In this document: one piece after another, positions 1 to 63,455 of the stretch
Position numbering within the stretch: position 1 is the stretch's first letter
Layout of the letters: each line of letters begins with the position of its first letter
Sequence record: OZ035810.1
Strand: one strand, 5' to 3'
DNA from: Gamaleyavirus AN24P2
Length of the DNA stretch: 64,000 bases
Program-made: the position numbers and the translations under genes
Notes under the pieces: model-generated
The model's database searches: none
What the model saw: the letters and a program-made list of their open reading frames with translations, nothing else
Told to the model about the DNA's origin: nothing

Positions 1-29
1 AATAGACATAACTTTGTAGCGAGATAAGT

Positions 30-719
30 ATGAGTGAACTAACTAAGCAGCAGATTGTTAATGCCCTACCTGCTAACTTCAAGAATAGTGTAACCCAGGA
101 ATTGGTGGACACAATTAACAACATAACCCAAGACCAACTGGTTGCTGAGTCCTTCCGTGAAAACTTTATCTCCTACTCTGGTGTAATGAAGGAGGGTAAG
201 TTTAAGACCCAGGACTACATGAATGCAGTTCAGTATGTGACTTACAAACACATGGGCTATTCCAATAAGGAAGCCTACTTCAAAACATTCCCTAACCGAC
301 AAGCAGAACTTGTGGCACGAGGAACCAGTGAAAAAGATATTAGTGCTTATGTATCTGCTTATCACAGAGGTAAGTTAGTTAACCTCATCATGGAACAAAG
401 TTTGGTTCCAGTGTGGATTGTGAACCAGGACAATTATCAGAAGGCAATCAATGTTCAGGTTGAACTAATGACCACAGCAGCAAGTGAAAAGGTAAGATGT
501 GATGCAGCTAACTCTATCCTTACTCACTTGGCTAAACCAAAAGACCAGGTAACGAATATCAATCTGGACTTGAGAGAGAACTCTGGATTGACCGACCTCA
601 AGGCAACACTTGCTGCATTAGCTGAACAGCAAATCAATGCAATCAATAGTGGAGTTCCTACTAAAGAGATTGCTGGTTCTAAACTAGTACGTGCAGATGA
701 GGACATTACAGATGTCTGA
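30..719 (+). CDS. hypothetical protein; possible terminase small subunit (directly upstream of and overlapping terL)
   Basis: 229-aa ORF with ATG at 30; stop overlaps the ATG at 712 of the terminase large subunit (ATGTCTGA). Function inferred from position only. Confidence 0.35.
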   Translation: MSELTKQQIVNALPANFKNSVTQELVDTINNITQDQLVAESFRENFISYSGVMKEGKFKTQDYMNAVQYVTYKHMGYSNKEAYFKTFPNRQAELVARGTSEKDISAYVSAYHRGKLVNLIMEQSLVPVWIVNQDNYQKAINVQVELMTTAASEKVRCDAANSILTHLAKPKDQVTNINLDLRENSGLTDLKATLAALAEQQINAINSGVPTKEIAGSKLVRADEDITDV

Positions 720-9257: not shown

Positions 9258-9744
9258 AGGTTGGCCTTATCTTCTGGTGGTGGTCCTTGGGGCCACCATG
9301 TACTTTTGGGGTAATTCCAACGGACAGTCTACTGTTCAAAAGAAGTGGGATGACCAAAAGGCTGAAGACCTAAAGACAACGCAAAAATTGCAGGATAAAT
9401 ACAATGCTCTCCAAAGAAACCATAGTTATGAAGTCGGGATACTCACTTCACGGTTGCAGACGGCTGAAAGTAATTACGCAAGCGAGCTTGCTCGCGTTAG
9501 CAGTGATTACGACAGCCGGATGCAACAGTCTGAAAGACGAGCATCGGTATATAAACGTCAAGCCGAAGCCGGAACCCTTGAGTGCAGAAGTCTTGCAAGC
9601 TATGCAGCCAGACTCGACAACAGTCTTGAAGAAGGCAGACGTTTGGTTGAAGAACTCCAGGCAACTGTTAGACTCCGTGACAACCAACTAATTGAGTTGG
9701 GTAAACAAATTCAGGCTGACCGTAAACTTTTTGAACAGGAATAA
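9238..9744 (+). CDS. i-spanin (Rz-like)
   Basis: ATG at 9238 with GGAGG RBS; N-terminal TM helix [22 protein letters not shown] then a coiled-coil-prone periplasmic domain. Confidence 0.6.
9428..9691 (+). CDS. o-spanin (Rz1-like lipoprotein) embedded in the i-spanin gene in another frame
   Basis: ATG at 9428; signal peptide with RR n-region, hydrophobic [10 protein letters not shown] and lipobox-like TAGC, followed by a Pro-rich segment KPKPEP. Confidence 0.55.
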   Translation: MKSGYSLHGCRRLKVITQASLLALAVITTAGCNSLKDEHRYINVKPKPEPLSAEVLQAMQPDSTTVLKKADVWLKNSRQLLDSVTTN

Positions 9745-14875: not shown

Positions 14876-14907
14876 ACAAAATTAGTTGAACCACAGGAAA
14901 TATTAAC

Positions 14908-15543: not shown

Positions 15544-15563
15544 CGTATAAGCTACAGTTCAAC

Positions 15564-15601
15564 ACGGCTCACTGGGGTAACTCCGTGGGCCGTTTCTTTT
15601 T
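15564..15601 (+). terminator. terminator-like hairpin
   Basis: Imperfect inverted repeat ACGGCTCAC...GTGGGCCGT followed by TTCTTTTT. Confidence 0.35.
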
Positions 15602-15613
15602 GAACCAAGAGGA

Positions 15614-16456
15614 ATGATTATGTCTTGTTCTGCTGAGGTAGAAGCTAACCGACTCCTAGTAGAGTTAACTAAGGGTGATGACTTTACTCTGCCCAATGTT
15701 GATATGTCCGGTCCTGCATGGGATATCCCAGGTGGAGATACTTCCCCAATCTTTGGTGCTATTGATAAAGTAACCAATGAGTCACTCACTACTCGTGAAG
15801 TAGGTGGTAGTGGTACGTTTGATGCATTAATGGAATCTGCACACAATCATCTCAAAGCCGAGTTTAAAGCTAACCGTATTACTGGTGGTGAATATACCAA
15901 AGCGTACATTGCTATGATGGAAGCCTGTATGAGTAATGCTGTTCAGTTCTTACTTGGGCGTGACCAAGCATACTGGGCTGCTGCTATGGCACAGATTCAG
16001 GCAGTTACTGCACGTGTTGGTTTAGCAACGGCTAAGGCTCAGTTTGTACTTGCTAAGGTACAGGCACTGTCTACTAAGTCTGAGTATGCCTTAACTAAGC
16101 TGAAGCTCTCTAATGAGGGTCAAAATTACTGTGCTGCAAAATTCAATGTGGATGAGATTCTTCCAGCTCAGGAACGTTTACTTAAAGAACAGTATGAAGT
16201 ACAGCGTGCACAGACCATGGAAACACGTTCAGACTCATTGCCTATTGCTGGTTCTATTGGTAAACAGAAAGAATTGTACTCTCAACAGATTACTTCTTAT
16301 CAACGGGATGCAGAAGTGAAGGCATCCAAGCTGTTTACTGATGCATGGATTACTCAGAAGACTATTGATGAAGGTTTGAATCCACCTAATGGTTTTACTA
16401 ACGCAAGTATTGATACCATCTTGGACAAGCTGAAATCTAACAACGGGCTGAACTAA
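15614..16456 (+). CDS. virion structural protein
   Basis: 280-aa ORF with ATG and RBS, in the structural block between capsid and vRNAP. Confidence 0.45.
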
Positions 16457-19581: not shown

Positions 19582-21546
19582 ATGGCTCAAATTACATGGC
19601 GTAATGTTGATGCACCTAACTTCTCTGGAGTTGGTGACAGCATTCGCACATTTGGAAGCATGATTGGTAACGCCACCTCCGGCTTAAGTGATGCACTGGG
19701 TAATTTCCAGAACGCTGCCAAGCAGGAGGCTGGCAATGCCGTCATGATGAATGCTATGCAGTATCAAGACCCAACTGAGTATCGTAATGCTTTGGCGTCT
19801 GGTGCACTGTTTCAGGGTGTTGACCCTTCTCTGATAAGCCAACGTACTCTCCAGAATCTGGATGAACGAGCAGGTACATTATTGAGTCAGCAAGGTCAAC
19901 AAGGAACCAATGACTACAATAACTATCGTTTTGGTCGATTACAGAAAAATGATTCTGCGTTAGATAATGCTTCTCCCGCTATTCGTTTATTGTCTGAAGC
20001 TTACCAGTCTGGTGACCAGAATCGTATTAATACTGCATTGGGTCAGACTCGTGAGGCATTATCTACGCTCCCAGCTGACCAACAGTTAGAATTGTTAGGT
20101 AGTTTACAAGGACAGGGTAGTGCTGCTATTAATCAGGCGAGCAATCGTTTTGATTTGGGTGTTGCTCAACGTAATGATGCCGATAGTCAGGCAGCTATGG
20201 GTGTAATGGCACAGATTACCCGTGGTGCTGAGAACCCTAATGATGCCCGTCTGTTGGCAGAAGCATACAGTAAGAACCTGTCTCCAGTTGCACAGGCACG
20301 CTTGCAGGGATTACTGGCTAATGCTTACCCGGGTGTTTACGGTAATGGTGTAGGTGCTACGTCTGCTCCTGGTACTGCTGGTACTCGTCAGGGTTCACCT
20401 TACGATGTTACTTATCAGTTTGCTGGTACATCTACTCCTATTACTCAAATGAGTATTGGTGATGTAATTAAACACCAGGATGGTATGAAATCGAACCAGG
20501 GTGCTTCCCCTGTTGGTGCATTCCAGATTAACCAAGCTACTCTGAAAGACTTCGCTCCCAAAGTTCTTGGTTCAGATTGGCAAAGCCAGCCTCTTTCTGC
20601 TGAGAACCAGGATAAGATTGGTAAGGCTATCTTCGAGTCTCGTAAGAATGGCAACCTTAAAGATACCTGGGCTGCTCTTCCTAACTCTACCCCAGGTGCT
20701 TATAAGGACATGACTTGGGAAGAGATTAAACCTGTTATTGCCCAAGCTGAAGTAGGGGCTGACCCACTCGCTATGGTTCAGAATAATCAAGGCAATCAGG
20801 CAGTATCTACCTTGGCTCAGGGTATGATTGGTACACGTTCTATGCAGGATAATACCGGTAGTCTTAATACTGACTTCCTTGGTACTGTCACTGATAATAC
20901 CCCAGTAGGTGAGATTGCTAACCGTCTGTTGGAAGGTGATTTTAAAGGTGCTGACCGTAACTGGGTACTGAACCGACTGAACGATATTTCTCAACGTGGA
21001 AATATGTCACCAGCTATGGCTGCTGCTGTTATGCAACGTGCACAGACTGGTGTACCAGAAGGTTATATTAGTCGTGCTATTGATGCAGTTAACCCATTCA
21101 TTACCAACGAAGCCGGTAATGGTATGCGTCTTAATGACCGTCAGGTAGAACAGTTAATTGAGGGTGTGAAACGGGGAGAACCACTGGAAGGTAGTGTTCG
21201 TAACCTAGGTCGTGCTCAGGCTATGCAGAATATTCAGGCAGCACAGACTGCATATGATGCTGCTGTAGCTGCACTGACAAATACCCAGAATAAGATTAAC
21301 ACCGGGCAAAGTGGTCTTACTGCACTGTTACCTGCACGTCAGGAAGCTGTTAATAAAGCTGCTGCAATGCTACAAGCTGCACAGGCACAAGTACAGGCTG
21401 ACCCAGCTAACCTGGCTCCAAAAGGTTTTCGGTCACAGGCTAGTGTGGACAGGGCACGAGCAAAGGAAGATGAAGAACGTGCTGCACGTTACCTACGTCA
21501 GGCACAAGGATTGCCTGAGTATATGCAACCAAGACAAAATCGGTAA
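19582..21546 (+). CDS. virion structural protein (N4 gp51-like by position)
   Basis: 654-aa ORF immediately upstream of the vRNAP gene; AGGAAA RBS. Confidence 0.45.
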   Translation: MAQITWRNVDAPNFSGVGDSIRTFGSMIGNATSGLSDALGNFQNAAKQEAGNAVMMNAMQYQDPTEYRNALASGALFQGVDPSLISQRTLQNLDERAGTLLSQQGQQGTNDYNNYRFGRLQKNDSALDNASPAIRLLSEAYQSGDQNRINTALGQTREALSTLPADQQLELLGSLQGQGSAAINQASNRFDLGVAQRNDADSQAAMGVMAQITRGAENPNDARLLAEAYSKNLSPVAQARLQGLLANAYPGVYGNGVGATSAPGTAGTRQGSPYDVTYQFAGTSTPITQMSIGDVIKHQDGMKSNQGASPVGAFQINQATLKDFAPKVLGSDWQSQPLSAENQDKIGKAIFESRKNGNLKDTWAALPNSTPGAYKDMTWEEIKPVIAQAEVGADPLAMVQNNQGNQAVSTLAQGMIGTRSMQDNTGSLNTDFLGTVTDNTPVGEIANRLLEGDFKGADRNWVLNRLNDISQRGNMSPAMAAAVMQRAQTGVPEGYISRAIDAVNPFITNEAGNGMRLNDRQVEQLIEGVKRGEPLEGSVRNLGRAQAMQNIQAAQTAYDAAVAALTNTQNKINTGQSGLTALLPARQEAVNKAAAMLQAAQAQVQADPANLAPKGFRSQASVDRARAKEDEERAARYLRQAQGLPEYMQPRQNR

Positions 21547-21553
21547 TACTAAT

Positions 21554-21577
21554 AAAAGCCCTTCGGGGCTTTTTTCT
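21554..21577 (+). terminator. rho-independent terminator
   Basis: AAAAGCCC-TTCG-GGGCTTTT hairpin followed by a T-run; same family as the hairpin at 7933. Confidence 0.6.
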
Positions 21578-21640
21578 TACACTGGCTTACTGTAGAGTAA
21601 GCTTCTTATATACGATATAAGTTTGAACAGGAAACATGCT

Positions 21641-24600
21641 ATGTCAACATTTGACCGTCTGGCAGGTTTCGCAGACAGCATCACTAATGCTAAGCAAGTC
21701 GATGTCTCTACTGCTACCTCTCAGAAGCAAGCTGCACAAGGGCAAAGCCCTTTCCAATTAACCCCAGAGAATGCTTACAATCTCCAAACTGGACGAGTAG
21801 GTAATTTAGGAATCGGTGCGTTCGAACCAGGTTCCCTCCAAGCTGATTTCACTCAGGCTTCCCCATTAGAAATTCTTAATAAATATGGTAATGAGCAAGG
21901 TCTACAGATTCTTAATAGCCGAGCTAATGCTGCTGATGCTGTACGTCAGGACTTATCTAAACAACGTACTAACGCAGAAGCATTTGGTGATACTCTTTCT
22001 GGTGTTGGTCTTGGTGTTGCTAATACCCTGGGGGGCATTGCTGCTCTTGGCACAGGTTTGGTCAATGATAATGCCGGGGCATCCATTGCTTCCGGGATGG
22101 ATTGGTTGAATGAAGGTGTGCACAATCTCCAGTCTGATGCACTGAATGTTACCCGTAAGGTTGTTCAGAATCAGAACCAGATTTCTGCTCAAAAGAACCA
22201 GAAACTTTACGAACAAGACATCAAAAATGGGGAGAGCAGCTTGGTTGCCTCCCTGTCTCGCATTGGTCGTGATGCTTTTGATTCTGTTGCTAATACACTT
22301 GATAACGGTATGGCTGCTACTGATGGGCTAAGTGAAGGTGTTGGTTCCCTCTTTACTGGTGGTCCACTTATCCGTGGTGTATCTGCACTCGGCAAAGTAA
22401 TGGTAGGTGGTGATAAAGCCGTTAAGGGTATTACCTTAGCTGCTGAGTTAGGTTCTCGTCCTGCACAGGTTGCATTGTCTGCTGGTCGTGTTGCTGCACC
22501 TGCTATTGCAATTGGTGGTATGGAAGCTGGTGGTGCATACCAACAGACTGCTTCTGAAATCATGAAGATGTCACATCAAGAATTAGCAAGTAAGTCTCCT
22601 GTTTATCAACAACATATTGCTGATGGTTTATCTCCTGATGAAGCTCGTCGTCAGACTGCATCTGAAACAGGTATCATTGCTGCTGGCTTAACTGCTCCGG
22701 TTGCTGCTGCTACTGGTCCACTGGTATCTAAATTTGAACTTAATCCACTTAAGGTAGGTTCACTGGTTGGTGCTGGTTCTAACATGCTGCGTGAAACTGT
22801 AGAAGAAGGTATCCAGTCTGGTACTAGTCAGTTTGCACAGAACAAAGCAATTCAAGGTAATGTAGATGCTAAACGTGACTTGCTTAAAGGTGTTGGTGAA
22901 CAAGCAGGTCTTGGTGCACTTTACGGCTTCGGTAGTGCTGGGGTTGCTCAAGCTCCAGGTGCAACTGTTAAAGCTGTTGGTGCTACTGCTGGTCCAGCCC
23001 TTCGTACTACTTTAGCCGGTGCTTCCCTGGTTGGTAGTGCACTAGCAAAAGCTGCATCTCCTCTTACTAACATCCTGGTTCAACGTGGTGAAGAAGTTGC
23101 TAAACGAAATGAACAAGCATCCCCTGTAGCTGATGCTACGGTTAATGCTGCTGCACAGGAAGCTGCTGCTCAGGCAGAACAAGCACAAGCAACTGTACAG
23201 GAAGCAGTAGATGCAATGGATATTTCTCCGGAAGAGAAAGCTGCTGCTACCCAGTATGCTGCTGACTTAACTCAGGCAATGAAGTTTGACCCGGTAGAAT
23301 TGGAACAAACTAACCCAGCAATCCGTGAAGCTGTTTCTGGTTCCACTAACCGTGTTGAAGCTATTCAGAAGATGGCTGACCTGGTTAATACTGCTGAGGA
23401 TCCTAACGTTCAAATGGAAGCTGCAATCCAGATGTATGACAATATCATGTCTATGGATAGCTTCATTAACCGTGACCCGGGTGCTCTGGCTAATCTGGAA
23501 CAAGGTTCTCCTGCTGCTGCGATTGTAGACCAGTTCTCCGGTCTGATGGCTAACGTACAGAATACTCCGAAGGTACTCCGTGCATTTCGTGCCATCCATT
23601 CCATGATTCAGGAACAGGCTGAAGCGGGTAAATTGAAAGCTACTGAAGAAGCTAACCAAGCTCAGGCAAACAACATTGCTATGGCTGCTGATGTGTCTCC
23701 AGAAGTTCTGGATGTAGAATCAGTGAACATGGTTCTGAAGCACGCAAGTGAAGGTAAGATTACATTAGGGAATCGTCAGCGTGCTGCCCTGCAATCTGCT
23801 GCTGCTCTATTGCAAGGAGCACGAGAATTTGACGCTAAAGCAGAAGAACTGGGCTTACGTCCTCAAGACATTGTTAGTAAACAAATTAAAACCGACGAAT
23901 CTCGTTCTAATGAAGGCCAGTACTCTGCGTTGCAACATGCTAAACGCATTCGTTCTGCGTACAACTCTGGTAACTTCGATTTGGCTTCCGCTTATCTCGA
24001 CGACTTTATGAAGTTCGCCCAGCACATGCAGAATAAGGTCGGAGCGTTGAATGAGCATTTGATTTCTGGGAATGCGGATAAGAATAAGTCTGTCCATTAT
24101 CAGGCTCTTACTCCCTCCCGTGAATGGGTACGTAGTCGTACTGGCCTCGGTGTCAATCCGTATGATACCAAGTCTGTTAAGTTTGCCCAGCAAGTAGGAC
24201 TGGAGGCCAAAACCGTAGCTGATATTGTTAATGCACTTGCTACGGCTTACCCGGAGCTTAATGTTTCTCATGTTAAAGTTACTCCATTAGATTCACGTCT
24301 GGACAAGCCTGCTGCCCAGGTGGTTAAAGAGTTCCGTCAGGGCAATCTTGATGCTGCTCAATCCCAACAGACCAATGAACCAGTGAATCAGGTTGATGAA
24401 ACTCCTGTTACAAAACAGGAACCAGTTACCCCTACTGTACAGACTAAACCCTCTGTTAGTGAAGCTGTTAAAACAGAACCTACTATTAAAGAGTCTAAAC
24501 CACAGTCTGTAAAAGAACCTGAGAACCAGTCCGAAAAGCAGGATGCTGCCATCACTAATGAGGATACCACTCAGGAAGTAGCTGAAACTAAAACGGAAAT

Positions 24601-27600
24601 GGAAGCAGTGTTCCCTGTCTATAACAATGACAAGACACCGAGCCAGTTCCTTAAAGCATTTGCTCTGCCGGAAGAACCTAAGACTCGTACCATTGGTTCT
24701 GAATCTCCTTTGACTGATGTTAAGCAAGCACTGTCTTCTGCTGCTCGCTTTGAAGCATTCACACAAAAAGAAAATAACGCTCTCACAAGTGATGTGATGA
24801 AACGTTATCAGGACTTACTGGGCTTTGGTGAAACTCTGAAGACTACTCTTTCTGACCGTCTGGCTAAGTTCCTTGCTAACAAAAATGTTGGTAAACGTTT
24901 TGCAGAAGGTACTGAAGCTAACCGTTGGGTAGGTGGTAAACTGCTGAATATCGTTGAACAAGACGGTGACACCTTTAAGTTCAATGACCAGTTGTTAGAG
25001 ACTGCTGTACTTGCTGGTCTGCAATGGCGACTAACTGCTACACAGAATGCTGCTGTTAAAGACATGAAAGACATAGCTGCTATTACTGGTGTAGAAGCAT
25101 CCCTGTTACCTGAAGGTATTCTGGCTGAATTTGAGAATGCTCAGACTCTGGTTGAAGCTACTAGCTCACTGGCTCAAAAGATTGAATCCTACTGGGGTTT
25201 GAATCGTAATCCTAATGCACCACTGGGCTATACCAAGGGTATCCCAATGGCAATGGCTACAGAGATTCTGTCTTCCCTTATTGAGATGGGTGAAGTTAAA
25301 GAGTCTATGCTGGATGTGTCTGAAATTGACCCAGCCTCCGATAAGACTGTAGGTCTGTACACCATTGAGAAGCTGGATGATAACGATGCCATTAACAATT
25401 TCCCTACTGCTATTGAGGAAGCTGTCCTCGTAGAACCAGAAGAGAAAATGTACTTTGGTGATGATATTCCTTCCGTGGCTCAAACTCAGTTACGTAATCC
25501 GGCTGTTAAGAATACCCCTGAACAGAAAGCTGCTCTTAAAGCAGAACAGGCTACTGAGTTCCGTGTACACATGCCTATGGTTAACTTCTATGAAGCATTA
25601 GGTCGTGACAACATTCTGGAACTGATGGGTGCTGGTACGCTTAATCCTGAACTACTGAACGTAAACACTGCTAAATCACTGGAAGGTAAGAACCTGTCAG
25701 TGTCTATGGCATATGATTCCTTGTTTGGGGTAATCAATCAGGTTCAGGAACAGGAGAATGGACTGGATACTCCTATTCACTATGGTTATAACATGACCCG
25801 TGTAGGTCGTATGCAGATGCTTGGTAAGAATAACCCACAATCCAGTAAGCTGGTGCGTGAAGCAATTCTGCCAACCTTCTCTACTATTGACTTGAGTAAT
25901 GAAAACAGCCAAACGTTCTCAGACTTCCAGTTAGGTCTGGCTCAGGCATTAGGCATCAAGGTACATAACATGTCCCGTGAAGCTATGTCTGAAAAGCTGA
26001 CTAAAGCTCTGGAAGGTAACCTGAAACCTGCTGTTGATATGATGGTTGAGTTTGATAAGTCTGGTCACTTACCAGTTGATGCAGTGGATATTCTGAAGAC
26101 GTCTCTTGGTGGCGATAAATCCTTCGTAGCTCTTATGGCTCTTATGGAATATGCCCGTTACCTGAACAGTGATGACCGTGCCAACTTTAATACCCCACTG
26201 TACGTTGAAGCCGATGGTGTAACTAACGGACCAATCAACGCAATGGTATTAATGACGGGTGGTAAGTTCACTTCAGACTGGGTTAAGAATACTGCTAAAG
26301 GTGGTCTGTTCTTTGGTAAAGCTGGTAAGACTATGAATGAACACCGTTCACAGGATGACAGTGTTGACTTGTATGAAGCATCTACCAACAGTCTGCAACA
26401 AGCTCTGAATGAGTTACGTACTACTTACCGTAACAACGTTCCGGTTATGAACCAGATGAATCATCTCCAAAAGTTAATGGACCTGTTCATTAAAGACTTT
26501 AACCTGAACGAAGACGGTACTCTGGACCTGAAGCGTGGTATCGCTAAAAACCCACTGACTATTACCATCTATGGTTCCGGTGCTCGTGGTATTGCAGGCA
26601 AGATGGTTAGTGCAATTACTGATACCATCTATGAACGCTTCAGTGACGTTCTGCAAGCTCGCGCTGCTGACCCTAGCATTTCCCCAGCTATGGCAATGTT
26701 TGGTAAAGAGGCTGCGTCTGAGACTGATGCTCAGGCTATGCTGGATACTTTCCTTACATCTATGGAAGCACTGACTGGTAATGTTCCAGTTATGCGTAAA
26801 GGTGAGCTGTCTATTCAACAAGTAGAAGGTGCTCTGACTGGTAAGTTAGACCCCCAGAAGTTTACTGTATCTGGTAATGCTCTGAAGAACCTGCAAGAGA
26901 ACATGCTTCACTTGTTCGTTGAACCAATGCGTACTGGTATTCGAAATACTGTTGGTGAAGGTCTAATGCACTCTACTGAGAACTTGCAGAAGGCTACCCA
27001 GATTCAGTCTCTGGTATTGCAAGACATGTTCCAGCAAGCAGTACAGACTAAGCTGGCAGAAAAAGAAAAAGACCCAACATGGAAGAAGGGTGATTTCTTA
27101 ACTCAGAAAGAACTGAACGAAATCCAGGAATCATTGTCTCCACTGGCTCCAATGATTGAGACTGGTTCGCAGACTTTCTACATTGCTGGTAGTGAGAATA
27201 CTGACGTTGCTAACCAAGTACTGGCTACCAACTTAGATGACCGTATGCGTGTGCCAATGAGCATCTATGCTCCTTCACAGGCAGGTGTTGCAGGTATTCC
27301 ATTTATGACCATTGGTACTGGCGATGGCATGATGATGCAGACCCTTTCTACTATGAAAGGTGCTCCGAAGAATACCCTGAAAATCTTTGATGGTATGAAC
27401 ATTGGTATCAATGACATCACTGATGCAAGTCGTAAAGCTAACGAGGCTGTATATACTTCCTGGCAGGGGAATCCTATCAAGAATGTTTATGACTCCTTTG
27501 CTAAGTTCATGAAGAACGTAGACTTCAGCAAACTGTCCGATGAAACTAAACAGGCTATCGCTAAGTCTGCTTTGGAATATGACCAGCGTGAGGGTGCTAC

Positions 27601-30600
27601 TGATGCCTTATTACGTGCAGGTGCTGAACAGATTGAGCGTAACTTGCGTAACATTGCTCTTGGTGTAGATATTCGCCATAAAGTAATGAACCAGGTACAG
27701 ACTACTGTTGACCAGATGGCTGCTGTAGGTGCTCCTTATGTGAACAACGGTAAAATCTCTCTGGAAGGTCTGACTGTAGACCAGCAAGTAGCTAAGCTGA
27801 ACGAATTGTTTGATGCTGAATTAAACAAACGTCGTGATGCAGTACGTGCTGCTAAAGCAGAACCAGTGAAAGAAGTACCAGCAATTGAGCAGGTTGGTCG
27901 TGTACTGAAGTCTGGTGTACGTCTGCTGTCTAATACTGCTATCTCTAAGCTGGCTAAAGAGATGTCTCAGGAACAACAAGCAGTACTGAAAGAAGTACAG
28001 AAATCCCCTGCTGCTAAAGACTACAAGGTTGTCTATGGTACACCTGCCCAACTGGATGCTTACGCTATTGAGAAGAACATTACTCGCCCAGCACCGGAAG
28101 ATATTGAAGCTGCTGAAGCAGGTAATGCATACGGCTGGACTAACTTCGAAGATAAGACCATTTATCTAGTTACCCCTTCCTTAGAAACTCTGGTTCATGA
28201 ATTGGTACATGCTTCTACTTTTGAATCTGTACTGACTCACTATGAAGGTACTCCTAATGAAGCAGTTCAGAACATTGAAGACCTGATGAACCAGTTCCGT
28301 GCTCTGGATGTTAAGGATGAATCTCCGGCAGTACGTGAAGCGTATGCTGATGCACTTAATACCATTAATGGTCACTTGTCCAATGGATTCATTGAGCCAT
28401 CAATGGCTAAAGCTGCTGCACTTAACGAGTACATGGCTTGGGGCTTAACCAACCGTGAACTGATTAGTAAGCAGAAGAAAACCACTGCACTTAAGACTAT
28501 GGTTCAGGCTGTGTATGAAGCAATCAAGCGTCTGGTATTTGGGCGTAAGAAAGCACCAGCTAATGCAGATGATATGTTCTCCGGCTTACTGTTTAACTCT
28601 GCTGTAGTAATGCGAGGACAAGCTCCTACTGCTGCTGTAGCTAAAGATACTACCCTGTTCCATAACAAAGCATACGGTGATAATACTCGTCTGGAAGAAT
28701 TAGGAAAAACCTTCGATAAGTTAATTACTGACTACATTGGTTCAGAACCAGTACAACAAGTAATTCGTAAAGGTAAGTTCTCTGATGCAGTAGTGAATGC
28801 AACTAAAGTAACCCGTGATGTTCAGGCTCATGGCTTCGCTATGAATATGCAGGAACAGCGTCTCTTTACTAACATTGTTGCTGCTCTGGCTACTGAGGCT
28901 GCTATTAACCCTGCTGCTTTGGCTCGTGCACAGGAATACTACACGCATGTTACTAAGAACCTGACTGTTGAAGCATTTATGGCTGACCCAGATAGTACTA
29001 ACCCTGCTGACCGTTATTACGCTCAACAGAAGTTCGATACCATCATGGGTGCTAACAATATTGAGTTTGATGCACAGGGACGTTCTTCCTTACTGCCTAC
29101 CTTTGTTGGGCTGGCAATGGTAAGTGAAGAAGTACGTAAGGTACTGGCTGATATTCCTGTTATGAAAGCAGATAAGCAATCCGGTAATACAGTTGATGCA
29201 ATGCTGACTAACATTGGTACTGCTGCAATGGCTAGTCTGAATGCTCGTGTAGCAGGTGATACCAAAGCTACTAATGTACAGGAAGGTATGGATGCACTGG
29301 CTCAAACAATCATGCAGACTAGCCTTAATGCACAGTCCTTTTATGATTCTGTTGCTACTCCTAGTGGTAATGCTATTGACCGTGCTAACCAGTATCTGGT
29401 GGACTCTATTGATGTATTGTCTACCCGTGCTTTAGAAGGTGCTCGTGAAGTTGCAGCTAATACCAAGAACCCGTTGGTTAAAGGTGCTGCTCATGCTGCA
29501 CAACTGATTGCTGCTATTGCTACAGAGAAGAATGGTGAAATCGTAGCCGAAGGAGTTATGGCTGCAATGAACCAGGGTAAGGTATGGCAACCTTTCCATG
29601 ACCTGGTTAATGACTTAACTGGTCGTACTAAGAGCAATGCTTCTGTGTATGATTTGATTAAGGCAGTTCGTGCACAGGTACAGGCTGACCGTCAACAATT
29701 CCGTGAACATTTGCCTACTACTATCGCATCTAAGTTCAGCCGTAAGCTGACTAATGATGAGTGGAAAGCAATGCACACTGGCATGGGTAAAACTGACTTG
29801 GCTGTCCTGCGTGACACTATGTCTTTGGCTGAAATCCGTGATTTGCTGTCGGACCAAAAGATTGTTGACCGTGAAGTGAATAAGCTGGAAGCAGATTTGC
29901 AGAAGCAAGCTGGACGTAACTGGCCTCTGATTAGTCGTAAATCTAAGCAACTGGCTCAGTTTATGATTAATGGTACAGTTGGTAATAACTTGCTGCGTAA
30001 TGCTACTGCAATTTCTCGTTTACTGGGTGAACGTAAGACTACTAGTTCTATTGTAGATGTAGCTAAACTGGATAAACTGATTACCCTGTATGCACTGGAA
30101 GCAATGAGTAATACTGACCGTGAGATGCTATCTTCACTGGCTCAAACAGAAGTTGATGGGATTGATTTTGCTACTTCTTACCTGGTTGGTCAGCGTAAAG
30201 ATGAAATGGCTAAAGCTAAGTCTGACATGCGTGCAACCCTGAACCAGTACAAAGGTTACATTCCTGGTGAGACTAAACAAGGTGTTAACCTGATTGTTGC
30301 TGAAGACAGTCAATTTGCTGATTTGATTGAGAAGTCCTATGTGCGACTGGGTACTTATCAGGGTAGCTCTGCTAATCGTGGTCCAGCACGTAGTTACTAC
30401 TTTGCACCAGTACAGGCACAGGCTCCATTCTCACAGGGTATCTTACAGAACGTTCGTAATACTGCTGGTGGTGTAGACCTTGGTACAGGCTTTACGATGG
30501 GTACAATGGTAGCTGGTCGTATCACTGACAAGCCTTCCGTAGACCGTATCACTAAAGCACTGGCTCGTGGTGAACGTGGTAATGAACCACTGCTGCCTGT

Positions 30601-31999
30601 GTATGATGACAAAGGTAATGTAGTTGCCTATGAGCAATCTATTGACCCTAACATGCTGAAGCACATTGAGGGTGAGAACCATCTTGCTCGTGCAATTGGT
30701 GTATGGCGTGGTCGTCAGGTAGAGGAAGCTAAGGCCCAGCGTTTCAACGATATGCTGATTGAAAATCTGCATAGCATGTACGAGAACGACATTAAAATGT
30801 CTGCCTCTAATAAGTCCCAGTATGTGAACCTTCTTGGTTCTAAACTGGACCCAGTAACTGCTGATGCTCTTAAACTGATGAACACTGAAACACGTCAGAA
30901 AGCAGAAAGCCTGTTTGGACCCGGTGAACTGTGGGTTCGTCGTGATATGCTGAATGATGCACTAGGCTATCGTGCAGCTTCTGTAGGTGATGCCTGGTCT
31001 GGCAATTCTCGTTGGTCCCCAGAAACACTGGATACCTTCAAGAAAGCTATGTTAGGTGTATTTGGCAACCGTGCTTACAAGTACGTAATGGGTGGTGAGA
31101 ACCTGGTTCAGAACTTAGTTAAAGAAGCTAAGACTCTGATTGTAGTTAAGTCAGTAGTTGTACCTGCTGTTAACTTCTTAGCTAACCTTTACCAGATGGT
31201 TGGTCGTGGTGTACCTGTTAAGAACATTGCTAAGAGCATTCCACAGAAGACTGCTGAGATTAACCAGTACCTGAAATCTCGTCTGCGTCAGGTAGATGCA
31301 GAAGCAGAATTACGAGCAGCTACTAATCCGAACCAGATTCGTAAACTTAAAGCTGAGATTCAGTCCATTACTGATAGTCATAAGCGTATGAGTATCTGGC
31401 CTCTATTAGAAGCTGGGGAGTTCTCTTCAATTGCAGATGCTGGTATTGGACGTGATGATATCCTGATTACTGAGGGTAAACTCCATGAATACATGGATAA
31501 GCTGGCTGATAAGTTACCTAAGTCAGTACGTACTGCTGGTCGTTATGCACTTATCACTAAGGATACTGCTTTGTTCCAGGGTATCCAGAAAACGGTTGAG
31601 TACTCTGACTTTATCGCTAAAGCAATCATCTATGATGACTTAACTCAGCGTAAAGGTAAGACACGTGAAGAAGCACTTGGACGTGTAACTGAAGAGTTCA
31701 TTAACTATGACCGTCTGCCGGGACGTTTCCGTGGCTATATGGAAAGTGTTGGTCTTATGTGGTTCTACAACTTTAAGATTCGTTCTGCAAAAGTTGCAGT
31801 GTCCATGATTCGTAATAACCCGGTCCATGCAGCAATGGCGATGTTGGCTCCAACTCCTACCATGTTTGGTAACGTTGGCTTACCTATTCAGGACAACATC
31901 TTTAGCATTGCTGCTAAGGATAGTCTGGATTACTCTTGGGGCTTTGGACAAGGGCTTCGTGCTCACAACCTGAACCCTTGGATGAACCTGGTAAACTAA
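21641..31999 (+). CDS. virion-encapsidated RNA polymerase (vRNAP, N4 gp50-like)
   Basis: Single uninterrupted ORF of about 3,452 aa from the ATG at 21641 (ORF-track start 21623 is TTG); size and position match N4 vRNAP; AGGAAA RBS. Confidence 0.8.
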   Translation: MSTFDRLAGFADSITNAKQVDVSTATSQKQAAQGQSPFQLTPENAYNLQTGRVGNLGIGAFEPGSLQADFTQASPLEILNKYGNEQGLQILNSRANAADAVRQDLSKQRTNAEAFGDTLSGVGLGVANTLGGIAALGTGLVNDNAGASIASGMDWLNEGVHNLQSDALNVTRKVVQNQNQISAQKNQKLYEQDIKNGESSLVASLSRIGRDAFDSVANTLDNGMAATDGLSEGVGSLFTGGPLIRGVSALGKVMVGGDKAVKGITLAAELGSRPAQVALSAGRVAAPAIAIGGMEAGGAYQQTASEIMKMSHQELASKSPVYQQHIADGLSPDEARRQTASETGIIAAGLTAPVAAATGPLVSKFELNPLKVGSLVGAGSNMLRETVEEGIQSGTSQFAQNKAIQGNVDAKRDLLKGVGEQAGLGALYGFGSAGVAQAPGATVKAVGATAGPALRTTLAGASLVGSALAKAASPLTNILVQRGEEVAKRNEQASPVADATVNAAAQEAAAQAEQAQATVQEAVDAMDISPEEKAAATQYAADLTQAMKFDPVELEQTNPAIREAVSGSTNRVEAIQKMADLVNTAEDPNVQMEAAIQMYDNIMSMDSFINRDPGALANLEQGSPAAAIVDQFSGLMANVQNTPKVLRAFRAIHSMIQEQAEAGKLKATEEANQAQANNIAMAADVSPEVLDVESVNMVLKHASEGKITLGNRQRAALQSAAALLQGAREFDAKAEELGLRPQDIVSKQIKTDESRSNEGQYSALQHAKRIRSAYNSGNFDLASAYLDDFMKFAQHMQNKVGALNEHLISGNADKNKSVHYQALTPSREWVRSRTGLGVNPYDTKSVKFAQQVGLEAKTVADIVNALATAYPELNVSHVKVTPLDSRLDKPAAQVVKEFRQGNLDAAQSQQTNEPVNQVDETPVTKQEPVTPTVQTKPSVSEAVKTEPTIKESKPQSVKEPENQSEKQDAAITNEDTTQEVAETKTEMEAVFPVYNNDKTPSQFLKAFALPEEPKTRTIGSESPLTDVKQALSSAARFEAFTQKENNALTSDVMKRYQDLLGFGETLKTTLSDRLAKFLANKNVGKRFAEGTEANRWVGGKLLNIVEQDGDTFKFNDQLLETAVLAGLQWRLTATQNAAVKDMKDIAAITGVEASLLPEGILAEFENAQTLVEATSSLAQKIESYWGLNRNPNAPLGYTKGIPMAMATEILSSLIEMGEVKESMLDVSEIDPASDKTVGLYTIEKLDDNDAINNFPTAIEEAVLVEPEEKMYFGDDIPSVAQTQLRNPAVKNTPEQKAALKAEQATEFRVHMPMVNFYEALGRDNILELMGAGTLNPELLNVNTAKSLEGKNLSVSMAYDSLFGVINQVQEQENGLDTPIHYGYNMTRVGRMQMLGKNNPQSSKLVREAILPTFSTIDLSNENSQTFSDFQLGLAQALGIKVHNMSREAMSEKLTKALEGNLKPAVDMMVEFDKSGHLPVDAVDILKTSLGGDKSFVALMALMEYARYLNSDDRANFNTPLYVEADGVTNGPINAMVLMTGGKFTSDWVKNTAKGGLFFGKAGKTMNEHRSQDDSVDLYEASTNSLQQALNELRTTYRNNVPVMNQMNHLQKLMDLFIKDFNLNEDGTLDLKRGIAKNPLTITIYGSGARGIAGKMVSAITDTIYERFSDVLQARAADPSISPAMAMFGKEAASETDAQAMLDTFLTSMEALTGNVPVMRKGELSIQQVEGALTGKLDPQKFTVSGNALKNLQENMLHLFVEPMRTGIRNTVGEGLMHSTENLQKATQIQSLVLQDMFQQAVQTKLAEKEKDPTWKKGDFLTQKELNEIQESLSPLAPMIETGSQTFYIAGSENTDVANQVLATNLDDRMRVPMSIYAPSQAGVAGIPFMTIGTGDGMMMQTLSTMKGAPKNTLKIFDGMNIGINDITDASRKANEAVYTSWQGNPIKNVYDSFAKFMKNVDFSKLSDETKQAIAKSALEYDQREGATDALLRAGAEQIERNLRNIALGVDIRHKVMNQVQTTVDQMAAVGAPYVNNGKISLEGLTVDQQVAKLNELFDAELNKRRDAVRAAKAEPVKEVPAIEQVGRVLKSGVRLLSNTAISKLAKEMSQEQQAVLKEVQKSPAAKDYKVVYGTPAQLDAYAIEKNITRPAPEDIEAAEAGNAYGWTNFEDKTIYLVTPSLETLVHELVHASTFESVLTHYEGTPNEAVQNIEDLMNQFRALDVKDESPAVREAYADALNTINGHLSNGFIEPSMAKAAALNEYMAWGLTNRELISKQKKTTALKTMVQAVYEAIKRLVFGRKKAPANADDMFSGLLFNSAVVMRGQAPTAAVAKDTTLFHNKAYGDNTRLEELGKTFDKLITDYIGSEPVQQVIRKGKFSDAVVNATKVTRDVQAHGFAMNMQEQRLFTNIVAALATEAAINPAALARAQEYYTHVTKNLTVEAFMADPDSTNPADRYYAQQKFDTIMGANNIEFDAQGRSSLLPTFVGLAMVSEEVRKVLADIPVMKADKQSGNTVDAMLTNIGTAAMASLNARVAGDTKATNVQEGMDALAQTIMQTSLNAQSFYDSVATPSGNAIDRANQYLVDSIDVLSTRALEGAREVAANTKNPLVKGAAHAAQLIAAIATEKNGEIVAEGVMAAMNQGKVWQPFHDLVNDLTGRTKSNASVYDLIKAVRAQVQADRQQFREHLPTTIASKFSRKLTNDEWKAMHTGMGKTDLAVLRDTMSLAEIRDLLSDQKIVDREVNKLEADLQKQAGRNWPLISRKSKQLAQFMINGTVGNNLLRNATAISRLLGERKTTSSIVDVAKLDKLITLYALEAMSNTDREMLSSLAQTEVDGIDFATSYLVGQRKDEMAKAKSDMRATLNQYKGYIPGETKQGVNLIVAEDSQFADLIEKSYVRLGTYQGSSANRGPARSYYFAPVQAQAPFSQGILQNVRNTAGGVDLGTGFTMGTMVAGRITDKPSVDRITKALARGERGNEPLLPVYDDKGNVVAYEQSIDPNMLKHIEGENHLARAIGVWRGRQVEEAKAQRFNDMLIENLHSMYENDIKMSASNKSQYVNLLGSKLDPVTADALKLMNTETRQKAESLFGPGELWVRRDMLNDALGYRAASVGDAWSGNSRWSPETLDTFKKAMLGVFGNRAYKYVMGGENLVQNLVKEAKTLIVVKSVVVPAVNFLANLYQMVGRGVPVKNIAKSIPQKTAEINQYLKSRLRQVDAEAELRAATNPNQIRKLKAEIQSITDSHKRMSIWPLLEAGEFSSIADAGIGRDDILITEGKLHEYMDKLADKLPKSVRTAGRYALITKDTALFQGIQKTVEYSDFIAKAIIYDDLTQRKGKTREEALGRVTEEFINYDRLPGRFRGYMESVGLMWFYNFKIRSAKVAVSMIRNNPVHAAMAMLAPTPTMFGNVGLPIQDNIFSIAAKDSLDYSWGFGQGLRAHNLNPWMNLVN

Positions 32000-46438: not shown

Positions 46439-46751
46439 TCTCTTGGTTAAGGCGGCGATTATTATATGCCTCCAGAATCAAGTCTCTTACATATGAGCGA
46501 ATCTCATAAGCAGGGCCAACTTGTTCTGACAGCCAATCAGCCACATGGGTTGGTAAAGGACGTAATACGTTTTCCATGAACGTCCGACGTGTGTCGGCTG
46601 GTTCAATATTTAAAGAACGCAATCGCAGAGTAACTGTAGTGGGGTGAACCCCCAACGTCTTAGCGATAGTTGCGAGGGACAGACCAACAGCATTCATACG
46701 AATGATGTCTTCATCAGTTGCTTTGCGATTACTTCTGAATACTTTAGACAT
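46356..46751 (-). CDS. HTH DNA-binding protein
   Basis: 131 aa; helix-turn-helix LSLATIAKTLGVHPTTVTLRL. Confidence 0.45.
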   Translation of the reverse strand: MSKVFRSNRKATDEDIIRMNAVGLSLATIAKTLGVHPTTVTLRLRSLNIEPADTRRTFMENVLRPLPTHVADWLSEQVGPAYEIRSYVRDLILEAYNNRRLNQESEHEKFIRLYAGKYGSLVPESSSKSDE

Positions 46752-46813
46752 AGCTTATTTCCTCTTCAAAGATAGCCTCACTTTATTATAAGTGAGGCTA
46801 TTTGAACAGGCTA

Positions 46814-48859
46814 TTACTTAGCAGCTTTGACCAGCTTGGTAGCTAACTTAGCTTCTTCTTCAGTCAGACCCATTGCAGTGAATGACTTCTTGGCATGACG
46901 CTTATAGTCTTGCAGAGCATGACCTTTCTGATAGTCAGAGTACGTCGTATCGTTCAGTATGCTACGCAGATTATCAGCATGTTTACCAGACGGAGCTACT
47001 TTAGAGGCAGTAGCAGAACGCATAGGTTTAGTTTTCTTCACTGACTTAGCTTTTGGTGCAGGAATACGAGTACTACGAATAGTAGCAATTGCATCCACCA
47101 CATCGGAACTAACTCCTAAAGCAGCCCATGGCTTACGAGCCTTGCCTCGCATTTCCACAAGTAAATCAGCAGCAGCTAACTTATCTTCTGGTGTTGTTGC
47201 ATTGAGGAACTCTCTAATCAGTTCCTGGATTTGTTCTTTCACAGTAGGAGCCTTCTTAGTAACAGGTTTGAGGTCAGTAGCCTTCACTGGTTCAGCAGCT
47301 ACAGCTTCATTCAGTGACTCTTCCATGTTCAGTGCTTCTTTACTAGCAACTGTACGGAATTGTTCTACAGAACCAGATGTGAGATTAGTGTATTTGAGGT
47401 TAGTACCACGATGTCCACCAACCATAATAAGTGTGGTAGGTGAACTATGGTTCCCAACGATGGCATCATTAAGCAGTTTCTTACCTACTTCTGTTTTAGA
47501 CAGGTAGATACCGTTGTTAACGTTATTACGTTCTTCTTCCGGCAGTTCAGCAATAATATGATATGCAGATACACGCATCTTATTGGTGCTGTACTGAGGA
47601 ACAGCAAATACATCTTCCGGTGCTACTTTACCAAGGATAGTTACGTTACCGCCGAAGCTACGGATATAGCTCATGGATGCTACATGCAAACCGTTAGAGC
47701 AGTCCTGACGACGGTCAGGGTCTACCAGGTCTTCACGTACCTGCACTTTACAGCCTACCCATTGACGAATGTTGCCTGAGTGACAATCAACGAATACACG
47801 TTTACCATCTTCTTTATCTTTATACTGAAGACGTTTCAGGAACAGGATTGAACCATCATCAGCAATAGGTAGCTCAGCAGTTTCCATGAACTTCATCAGA
47901 TCTTCTACTGAGTGCAGGCGGTCTTTAATAACCGGAGCCAGACGCTCAAGGAACTTGGTAAATCCCTTGTAGTCTTTCAGCTGGGCAGACTGACGCAAGT
48001 GACGCTGTAGGTTTTCAACTCCAGGTATAACCCCATTGTTGGTAACAGCAACAACCACTTCATCTTCTTTCACTTCAGTGTGGAAGTTAGCGTCATCGGT
48101 ACTAATAGCACCCAATGCAGCTAACTTATCAGAGACGGCAGCCAGCTTATCCTGGTTCGTAACTTTAACCTCTTCTACATATGGAAATGGCGTTACATCA
48201 CGACTGGTAAATACAATGTGTACTCCTTTGATGTGCTTGGCTTGTTTAATAAACTCACCCATTTCATCATCGGATACTGCACGGATTCCAATAGGCCATT
48301 CCCGTGCAAGGATGCGATTAGTATGGTCATAGCCCCAACCCAGTACGTCGTTAATAAAACGAACCAGTGCAGGATGGTTATGGTCCTTACCCCAGCCAGT
48401 AACCCACATCAGATTGTCACGTCTGTCGTAAAAACCATCAGATACTATTACTTCTGGTTCATTAGCCTGTACAGCCAGGAAAGTATCCATAGCTTTAGAT
48501 ACTAATGTCTTAGTAGGATTACCCAGCTTAATATCTGAAACGATACGGGCAGGAGGAGCACCTGTACCATCTTCGAAGAACTCTTTGAGTTTAGCTTTAG
48601 CTACCTTGAAGAAACGGACGAATCCGTTAGTGTTCTTCTCTGCTTCCAAGTATTCAGTACGCAGAGCTACTTCTGGTGCAATGTTTACTTCTATCTGGTC
48701 TTTGGTAGTTCCCAGACCTTTGGTTTGTGCTTCAGATACAATGCGAGCAACCCGTAGGTCGCTCTGAGGATATACAATCGTGGAGCCATCAGGCTTCCAC
48801 AGTGTAAGGTTACGACTGTCAACTGCCAGTGCGATGATAGAAATCAATTCGATTTTCAT
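46814..48859 (-). CDS. rIIB: rIIB-like protein
   Basis: 681-aa ORF immediately downstream of and co-oriented with the rIIA-like gene; assignment by synteny with N4-like phages. Confidence 0.45.
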   Translation of the reverse strand: MKIELISIIALAVDSRNLTLWKPDGSTIVYPQSDLRVARIVSEAQTKGLGTTKDQIEVNIAPEVALRTEYLEAEKNTNGFVRFFKVAKAKLKEFFEDGTGAPPARIVSDIKLGNPTKTLVSKAMDTFLAVQANEPEVIVSDGFYDRRDNLMWVTGWGKDHNHPALVRFINDVLGWGYDHTNRILAREWPIGIRAVSDDEMGEFIKQAKHIKGVHIVFTSRDVTPFPYVEEVKVTNQDKLAAVSDKLAALGAISTDDANFHTEVKEDEVVVAVTNNGVIPGVENLQRHLRQSAQLKDYKGFTKFLERLAPVIKDRLHSVEDLMKFMETAELPIADDGSILFLKRLQYKDKEDGKRVFVDCHSGNIRQWVGCKVQVREDLVDPDRRQDCSNGLHVASMSYIRSFGGNVTILGKVAPEDVFAVPQYSTNKMRVSAYHIIAELPEEERNNVNNGIYLSKTEVGKKLLNDAIVGNHSSPTTLIMVGGHRGTNLKYTNLTSGSVEQFRTVASKEALNMEESLNEAVAAEPVKATDLKPVTKKAPTVKEQIQELIREFLNATTPEDKLAAADLLVEMRGKARKPWAALGVSSDVVDAIATIRSTRIPAPKAKSVKKTKPMRSATASKVAPSGKHADNLRSILNDTTYSDYQKGHALQDYKRHAKKSFTAMGLTEEEAKLATKLVKAAK

Positions 48860-63430: not shown

Positions 63431-63455
63431 ATAACCAAAAGCTGCGGAGCAGCTA
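63431..63455. promoter_or_regulatory. hairpin with 3-nt GGA loop preceded by AAAAG: candidate vRNAP-type early promoter and/or minus-strand terminator
   Basis: Plus strand CCAAAAG-CTGC-GGA-GCAG-CT; on the minus strand the same hairpin is followed by TTTTGG. It lies in the only sizeable intergenic gap in the early region. Confidence 0.4.

Follow-up and report, generated by a model that had tools for sequence, protein, structure and literature searches.

In Gamaleyavirus AN24P2, an N4-type coliphage of the G7C-like group, the virion RNA polymerase (vRNAP) gene is preceded by a short hairpin which, judging from its orthologues, is a structure under selection and encloses an additionally sequence-constrained hexamer, TA.AGT. 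We hold the chances to be about even that this hexamer, TAnAGT, is the -10 element of a sigma70-type late promoter belonging to the vRNAP gene itself, wrapped in the hairpin and devoid of a -35 element. The hairpin, hereafter hairpin 1, lies at 21585-21602 on the + strand of the window, i.e. the whole stretch of 64,000 nucleotides analysed (OZ035810.1, positions 1-64000), in the spacer between the homologues of gp51 and gp50, the latter encoding vRNAP. A second hairpin, hairpin 2 (21605-21621, +), adjoins it. Along the spacer, the gp51 stop codon is followed by a terminator, hairpin 1, hairpin 2, TTTGAAC, the Shine-Dalgarno (SD) sequence AGGAAAC and the ATG. The records of G7C and N4 carry no annotated feature at the gp51-gp50 junction.

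Two adjacent stem-loops between the terminator and the ribosome-binding site (RBS) of vRNAP had been reported in a preliminary description; the sequence and an exhaustive hairpin scan of the window, which recovered both, confirmed them. Hairpin 2 (CTTATAT-ACG-ATATAAG) has the seven perfect pairs and 3-nt loop given there, while hairpin 1, listed with six pairs, in fact forms seven (GCTTACT-GTAG-AGTAAGC), or eight as RNA when a G.U pair is counted; its core, CTTACT-GTAG-AGTAAG, occupies 21586-21601. Perfect hairpins with a stem of 7 bp or more and a loop of 3-4 nt number 25 in the window, whereas shuffled sequences contain 8.7 +/- 2.9; two perfect hairpins of this stem length lay side by side in 2 of 300 shuffles. 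The folding energy of hairpin 1 is -9.5 kcal/mol as RNA (z = -4.4, equalled by none of 200 shuffles) and -5.7 kcal/mol as DNA. Neither hairpin motif recurs in the window beyond chance, and the idea of a repeated motif was abandoned, as CTTACTNNNNAGTAAG, CTTATATNNNATATAAG and GATATAAGTTTG occur at chance frequency and a look-alike at 53002 is intragenic.

Orthologous spacers collected from IMG/VR, GenBank and metagenomes gave 17 distinct sequences (alignment A1) covering four genera (Gamaleyavirus, Moovirus, Kaypoctavirus and N4). Eight further matches, five on viral contigs (L034, L042, L045, L052 and L053) and three from metagenomes (L065, L071 and L073), were excluded because they lacked the terminator/vRNAP context, most of them lying inside coding sequence. 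The alignment is nearly gapless, the distance from terminator to TA.AGT is constant, and the terminator, T-A-n-A-G-T and the block GATATAAGTTTGnAyAGGAA are invariant throughout. In hairpin 1 the arms vary in sequence yet pair in all 17 orthologues: ACACTA-GGTA-TAGTGT in N4, CACACT-TTGTATAT-AGTGTG in KP8, CTCACT-N8-AGTGAG in Moo19 and L008, TTCACT-N8-AGTGAA in L006, TCACTA-AATGTA-TAGTGA in L009, and the AN24P2 form throughout the AN24P2/G7C clade. Paired cells reached 88% in the register common to the orthologues and 83% in that of the AN24P2/G7C clade, compared with 20-59% in slid controls. Two to three pairs are altered on both sides, with compensatory changes of CG to UA and UA to AU, and the register shift of the AN24P2/G7C clade involves a G46 to A substitution that converts a U.G into a U-A pair. 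Against 500 shuffles, the covariation score was higher than all of them in one register and higher than 488 in the other, for a small and related sample. Every orthologue folds, at -5.5 to -10 kcal/mol, with a loop of 4, 6 or 8 nt. It is because the arms vary but always pair, and all orthologues fold, that hairpin 1 is regarded as a selected structure. An Rfam search returned nothing at threshold (best scores of 13-15 bits against gathering cut-offs of 41-70, E > 2).

These comparative data contradict a functionless chance palindrome in the case of hairpin 1. Short hairpins are common, as the shuffled expectation above indicates, and hairpin 2 in particular is AT-rich, of low complexity and of marginal energy; for it, chance is largely the view accepted here. 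Hairpin 1, however, has persisted in four genera although its arms have turned over, and has counterparts in two further clades, and so close a pair is rare in shuffled sequence. As an account of the site as a whole, chance is hardly credible.

The hexamer TAGAGT (21593-21598, +) straddles the loop and the 3' arm of hairpin 1. When it is numbered -12 to -7, the 5' arm spans -20 to -14, the loop -13 to -10 and the 3' arm -9 to -3. T-12, A-11, A-9, G-8 and T-7 (columns T40, A41, A43, G44 and T45 of A1) are invariant in the orthologues, while position -10, the third base, is T, C, G or A among relatives and the flanking arm bases vary. The third position is the least constrained in sigma70 -10 elements, whose critical positions are A-11 and T-7. 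TAGAGT thus has the TATAAT-like form of such an element, with A at -11 and T at -7, and TAnAGT scored 4.7-6.6 bits at the aligned position in all Enquatrovirinae sequences with a position weight matrix for the textbook -10. Throughout the Enquatrovirinae, TAn closes the loop and AGT opens the 3' arm. According to sigma70 spacing rules, transcription is predicted to start at 21604-21607 (+), the seventh base past the hexamer being 21605.

The preliminary description had named another hexamer, TATAAG (21616-21621, in hairpin 2), as a -10-like element. If it were the -10, transcription would start in TTTGAAC with a leader of about 14 nt, and hairpin 1 would become an upstream element at -35. Several observations are compatible with this arrangement: GATATAAGTTTG is invariant from N4 to the G7C-likes, gp69, the first of the late genes, is preceded by a similar block, ATAGAyATAAsTTTG, a -10-like hexamer stands a few bases ahead of TTGAAC at several late genes, and the distant locus L021 has TATAAT 15 nt before its ATG. 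TATAAG nevertheless has G at -7, the most conserved -10 position, scores about 3.2 bits against the 4.7-6.6 bits of TAnAGT, and falls outside the top three hexamers in every Enquatrovirinae sequence. Its spacing to hairpin 1 varies by 13-15 nt, and no RBS-proximal equivalent is found in the distant clades. The block around it is better read as a shared translation-initiation motif, since TTGAA-N-GGAAA-N-ATG also occurs before gp35. We therefore regard TATAAG as an improbable -10; the element that is invariant across the family is TAnAGT.

More distant N4-like phages also bear on the promoter assignment of TAnAGT. In all sampled N4-like clades, a terminator follows the gp51 homologue and a -10-like hexamer then stands 38-48 nt before the vRNAP ATG, where it is the best or near-best -10 match in every clade. 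An in-register TGn extended -10 is present in the JWAlpha-type phages (TGGTAAACT), in two Pseudomonas-/Achromobacter-type loci (TGGTAGACT) and in Stenotrophomonas Paxi (TGCTATTGT); the hexamer is TATAGT in Burkholderia HN03, TAAATT in Erwinia Ea9-2 and TACACT in Pollock and KpCHEMY26. A pyrimidine followed by A is found at the seventh base past the hexamer in six of nine distant-clade sequences. With the terminator and the hexamer at 38-48 nt in all these clades, and the TGn and the pyrimidine-A start in some of them, a promoter of host type that serves the vRNAP gene alone and directly follows the gp51 terminator looks like a family-wide feature. The geometry of hairpin and hexamer recurs with unrelated arms in the JWAlpha-type phages (GGGAGT-GGTAA-ACTCCC) and in Burkholderia HN03 (AGGACT-TCAGCTAT-AGTCCT). 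The inverted repeat would be an add-on rather than part of the core promoter, because several clades keep the hexamer without it.

A number of observations weigh against the promoter assignment. No TTGACA-like element is present 16-18 bp upstream of TAGAGT, where the T-tract of the gp51 terminator (TTTTTT, 21570-21575) is found instead, and a scan for consensus promoters made no call at the site and found no -35 match. In the Enquatrovirinae, TG stands at -14/-13 and not at -15/-14, out of the extended -10 register (TGTAGAGT), and the seventh base past the hexamer is C or T, not a purine. A second invariant -10-like hexamer, TAAGTT, lies at -23 from the vRNAP ATG. TAnAGT occurs four times in late intergenic regions against 1.4 expected, which is not significant; the counts of TAnAGT, TATAAG and TGAAC in late intergenic DNA are all small. 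The hexamer is kept without a hairpin in L014, L016, Paxi, Ea9-2 and Pollock, and the stabilities of hairpin 1 on the + and - strands show no consistent asymmetry across orthologues. A literature search yielded no mapped 5' end at the gp51-gp50 junction and no transcriptome of an N4/G7C-type phage, and read-through of the gp51 terminator could by itself be the source of vRNAP expression. Promoter activity, the start site, activator dependence and the part played by the hairpin are thus all inferred from sequence comparison.

Among the closest known counterparts of the element are the N4 late promoters. Cho, Choi and Rothman-Denes reportedly described in 1995 the activation of E. coli sigma70 holoenzyme at N4 late promoters by N4SSB. 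N4 late promoters are described as being of sigma70 type, resembling the consensus weakly and depending on N4SSB (PMC4496689; PMC9163698), and a TAnAGT without a -35 fits this description. Similarly, the vRNAP element precedes a late virion gene on the late strand and, with A-11 and T-7 but no -35, resembles the consensus weakly; the N4 orthologue itself keeps it as TATAGT inside ACACTA-GGTA-TAGTGT. Unlike the vRNAP site, the other late intergenic regions of AN24P2 and N4 are without the hairpin geometry. When the whole genomes of AN24P2 and N4 were scanned for TAn at the loop end and AnT at the start of the 3' arm of a stem of 5 bp or more, the totals were those of the null, and a hairpin-embedded -10 was accordingly rejected as a general feature of late promoters; the only intergenic and correctly oriented matches lay upstream of gp50 and gp35. 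Promoters with an extended -10 (TGn) function without a -35, and the Achromobacter, Pseudomonas and Stenotrophomonas orthologues are textbook TGnTAnAnT sequences, whereas in the subfamily of AN24P2 the TG is one base too close to the hexamer.

A hairpin at this distance from a start site also recalls promoters read by the phage's own RNA polymerases, vRNAP or RNAPII. The early vRNAP promoters of N4, situated at the early end of the genome, are hairpins centred at -11; on the template strand they show the heptamer GCGRAGC, which is rich in GC, a GRA loop of 3 nt closed by a G:C pair, and -8G and +1C (PMC4496689). The middle promoters of LUZ7 are hairpins about 15 bp upstream of the transcription start site (PMC9163698). 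Hairpin 1 resembles N4 P1-P3 in being a short inverted repeat with a stem of 5-7 bp and in its position, its centre being about 11-12 nt upstream of the predicted start; hairpin 2 has a 3-nt loop. Unlike P1-P3, hairpin 1 is AU-rich, has a loop of 4-8 nt and carries a sigma70-type hexamer, and neither hairpin has a heptamer of this kind, a GRA loop or a closing G:C pair on either strand. Three genuine vRNAP promoters of AN24P2, of the form CCAWAA-stem-GC-GGA-GC-stem and situated on the template strand of early genes, were found at 63440-63454 (63444; +; AGCTGC-GGA-GCAGCT) and at record positions 67931 and 68768 (L031 3931 and 4768; GACGC-GGA-GCGTC and CATGC-GGA-GCATG), and in view of their differing form a vRNAP promoter in hairpins 1 and 2 was rejected. 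As to RNAPII, judged here by position and recurrence, its N4 sites are short, recurrent AT-rich elements from -7 to +2 on the early strand that are confined to the other, early/middle half of the genome, while the invariant block of the spacer is non-recurrent (7 occurrences against 7.9 expected) and lies on the late strand. Virion proteins, moreover, depend on the rifampicin-sensitive host enzyme. A promoter for a phage polymerase is in our estimation very unlikely.

The main rival to a sigma70-type promoter acts at the RNA level and may coexist with it. According to this explanation, vRNAP mRNA would arise from read-through of the gp51 terminator, and hairpin 1 would set a low vRNAP level in one of three ways: by weak termination or attenuation past the first terminator, by signalling RNase processing, or by stabilising a 3' or 5' end. 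Intrinsic termination after the gp51-like gene is predicted at 21554-21575 (+), where AAAAGCCC-TTCG-GGGCTTTT is followed by a T-tract; the element is kept in all relatives with compensated stem variants (e.g. AAAGCCCC-ATCC-GGGGCTTT) and is annotated as a terminator in the PhAPEC7 record. The interval 21554-21573 is also terminator-like on the - strand (AAAAGCCCCGAAGGGCTTTT then ATTAGTATTA) and could stop antisense transcription as well. Substantial read-through has been observed at more than 60% of LUZ7 terminators (PMC9163698) and a virion contains 4 +/- 1 copies of vRNAP (PMC13434306), both of which count for an RNA-level role. At the site itself, a permissive scan listed 21584-21603 as terminator-like (eight pairs including G-T, three G:C, five T in eight), the tail past hairpin 1 is T-rich in relatives too (TTCTCTAAT, GATTTCTAAT and TCTTCTTAT), and both N4 and the AN24P2/G7C clade have G.U pairs that lengthen the stem on the + strand.

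The spacer is like tandem terminators or terminator-promoter insulators between phage operons in that, within 10 nt of a strong terminator, it has a further hairpin, T-rich in its tail, and after this a new start signal. It is unlike them in that the second hairpin has only two to three G:C pairs, its T-tract is interrupted and the bases of its loop and arm are constrained. The canonical terminator lies 12 nt upstream, the stems of hairpin 1 are AU-rich (-5 to -10 kcal/mol), and the hairpins of L008, L006 and Moo19 fold better on the - than on the + strand. An RNA-level role furthermore leaves unexplained both the invariant T and A of the loop and first three bases of the 3' arm amid varying stem pairs, and the TGn-extended -10-like hexamer at the same spot in distant clades that have no hairpin. 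As the sole function of hairpin 1 we consider it unlikely, if still the strongest competitor. The attenuator, processing site and promoter structure of the preliminary description fared differently: the comparative data favour a promoter structure for hairpin 1 and not for hairpin 2, and hairpin 1 may act as an attenuator or processing site in read-through RNA. Since both strands fold about equally, a DNA role and an RNA role of hairpin 1 are inseparable in these data.

Hairpin 2 behaves differently from hairpin 1. The conservation that the preliminary description had proposed to look for was found for hairpin 1, by covariation in the 17 orthologues, and not for hairpin 2, where the changes are uncompensated. 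The perfect 7-bp palindrome occurs only in AN24P2, with a marginal energy of -1.9 kcal/mol as RNA. The commonest left arm in G7C-type phages is CCTATAT, which creates a C.A mismatch, and TCTATAT, TCTATGT, CTCATA and CTAATA are also found; the right arm is invariant, so that neither maintained pairing nor compensatory change is seen. Among the eight relatives folded (three more were not), five gave an RNA minimum free energy of 0 and two gave -0.9 kcal/mol. Hairpin 2 is thus not a conserved structure and is read here as largely a palindromic coincidence at the start of an AT-rich leader. It would lie at the extreme 5' end of the predicted leader (+1 or +2), like 5' stem-loops of the ompA type, but with so little stability, and unfolded in most relatives, a stabilising role for it is unsupported.

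What is conserved around hairpin 2 is the leader block GATATAAGTTTGAACAGGAA (21614-21633, +), which holds its right arm and the SD AGGAA (21629-21633). The corresponding GATATAAGTTTGnAyAGGAA is identical, except at n and y, in N4, KP8, Moo19 and all G7C-likes. From the predicted start, the leader has no more structure than shuffled sequences (z = -0.16). An alternative fold in the minimum free energy structure of 121 nt, pairing GAUAUA with UAUGUC at the start codon, was rejected: it is uncompensated in relatives with CCAUGUC, and the leader is shuffle-like. The motif TTGAAC-N0-6-AGGAA(A) stands directly before four late-gene start codons (9731-9741, 14886-14899, 15600-15614 and 21623-21633, all +), against 0.37 expected. 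The middle-region gene gp35 is preceded by a variant of it, TTTGAAGAGGAAATAAGCTATG (46749-46769, -). Together with the related blocks before gp35 and gp69 already mentioned, this recurrence suggests that the leader block is a shared translation-initiation or leader/regulatory signal.

The leader of gp69, a small terminase-like gene, has a structure of its own. From N4 to the G7C-likes it contains the block TTCTnCAAGGGGT-loop-ACCCCAAGAAAAGAATC, which forms a hairpin of -8.2 kcal/mol; this GGGGT-loop-ACCCC hairpin likewise comes directly after a predicted start. The site, in the divergent gp70/gp69 region, is read from L031 7040-7225 joined to window 1-32, the record being circularly permuted there. 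Upstream of the hairpin are TAnnGT hexamers (TATGGT, TAGAGT and TATCGT) and an invariant CTAAAGT, and after it comes AATAGACATAACTTTG, which resembles the vRNAP leader. Farther upstream of gp69 is an inverted repeat, ATACT-ATTT-AGTAT, with the counterpart CTTAC-TATT-GTAAG in N4.

The symmetry of the spacer could in principle reflect an operator, in which the inverted repeats bind a dimeric phage protein, e.g. the helix-turn-helix (HTH)-like gp35, that represses or times the vRNAP promoter. The arms of L008 and Moo19 match in core and spacing the repeat CCTCACT-N8-AGTGAGG upstream of gp35 in AN24P2 and G7C, gp35 gives weak HTH matches, and hairpin 2 keeps its palindromic symmetry at 5-7 of 6-7 positions in all relatives despite its negligible folding energy. 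The half-sites of hairpin 1, however, are separated by 4, 6 or 8 nt, and this varying loop length fits a hairpin better than a protein site of fixed geometry. The N8 register is not palindromic in the AN24P2/G7C clade. In N4 and KP8 the core at gp35 has become CAGT/ACTG while that of the vRNAP site is still CACT/AGTG, so the two sites do not co-vary, and all HTH matches of gp35 fall below the Pfam cut-offs. An operator is rather improbable on this evidence, slightly more so than a -10 at TATAAG.

The gp35 site itself (46772-46801, -) lies between an rIIB-like gene (46814-48859) and the gene for the 117-aa gp35 homologue (ATG at 46751). Its hairpin, ATAGCCTCACT-TATAATAA-AGTGAGGCTAT, has a stem of 10-12 bp and no T-tract, and its arms covary (TAGCTCCAGT/ACTGGAGCTA in N4, TAGCCTCAGT/ACTGAGGCTA in KP8). 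TAAAGT or TATACT stands at the boundary of loop and 3' arm, and the leader is much like that of vRNAP. The G7C record annotates the hairpin only as 'stem_loop'. As a second copy of the vRNAP module the site was rejected: TTCAAA...TTTGAA, with a TC bulge, can lengthen the stem to about 17 bp, the hairpin is missing in Burkholderia HN05, and in Erwinia Kuerle the site holds a terminator of the ordinary type. The gp35 element may thus be of another kind, and it is given little weight here.

In the genome, the + strand carries all late genes, between about 1 and 32000, and the - strand those of the middle and early classes. The gp51 homologue is an open reading frame (ORF) at 19582-21546 (+; TAA stop at 21544-21546). 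The vRNAP gene, of 10.4 kb, spans 21641-31999 (+) and encodes 3452 aa from an in-frame ATG at 21641 that is provided with an SD sequence (full ORF 21623-31999); over the first 600 aa its product is 54% identical to N4 vRNAP. The 2 kb around the hairpins match the AN24P2 record OZ035740.1 at 100% identity and at equal coordinates, and are 88-95% identical to those of about 55 G7C-like coliphages of the N4 family. Three other places in the genome were recorded. Between two late genes, at 15559-15592 (+), CGGCTCAC...GTGGGCCG and, inside it, GGGG-TAA-CTCC form a long composite hairpin, which is followed by TTTCTTTTT and is probably a terminator; TATAAG and TACAGT lie directly upstream of it. At L031 4322-4343 (record 68322-68343, -), an AT-rich hairpin, AAAGTAGAT-AAAT-ATCTACTTT, stands directly before the RBS of an early gene and is not terminator-like. 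In the long non-coding stretch past the vRNAP gene, ARAGORN found two adjoining tRNA-like genes (33226-33383, -), one tRNA-Ile(AAT) and a second with an irregular anticodon loop and no identity called.

Taken as a sigma70-type promoter region, the gp51-gp50 spacer would be a unit of terminator, promoter and leader. The strong intrinsic terminator would end the gp53-gp51 transcript, and TAGAGT would serve as the -10 of a separate vRNAP late promoter read by the host sigma70 RNA polymerase. Without a usable -35, a position occupied by the T-tract of the terminator, this promoter presumably needs the single-strand-binding protein of the phage as activator, as N4 late promoters do. A start at about 21605 would give a leader of some 36 nt, the last 27 nt of which (21614-21640), from GATATAAGTTTGAACAGGAA to the ATG, would form the translation-initiation region. 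Hairpin 1 would be centred at about -11.5, with T-12 and A-11 in the loop and A-9 to T-7 and the discriminator in the 3' arm. Its role would most likely be to modulate promoter opening or occupancy at the DNA level, and in RNA that reads through the terminator it may also provide a weak further stop, insulating vRNAP from the upstream operon.

More speculatively, the -10 could be presented by the hairpin. Negative supercoiling, which N4-type phages already use at their early promoters, would extrude the repeat or let it breathe, and the unpaired T-12 and A-11 would let sigma70 holoenzyme capture a late promoter that has no -35, making vRNAP expression dependent on topology or replication; the design would have arisen independently in the Enquatrovirinae, the JWAlpha-type Achromobacter phages and HN03. 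We consider this proposal doubtful, a little less favoured than the RNA-level explanation; the same design may have been reused before gp35. A promoter by itself would be an ordinary element, and the unusual part would be the conserved, repeatedly evolved hairpin around its -10. If hairpin 1 were merely a back-up terminator, the finding would be an ordinary one, and hairpin 2 alone is of little interest.

N4 is the textbook case of promoters made of DNA hairpins and of single-strand-binding proteins acting as transcription activators, and its late promoters have been described merely as weak sigma70-like sites. If a hairpin-wrapped -10 does drive the vRNAP gene, DNA structure would act in the late as well as in the early transcription of N4-type phages, and the arrangement would offer a concrete way to study how the 380-kDa virion polymerase is made separately from the products of the upstream ejection-protein genes.

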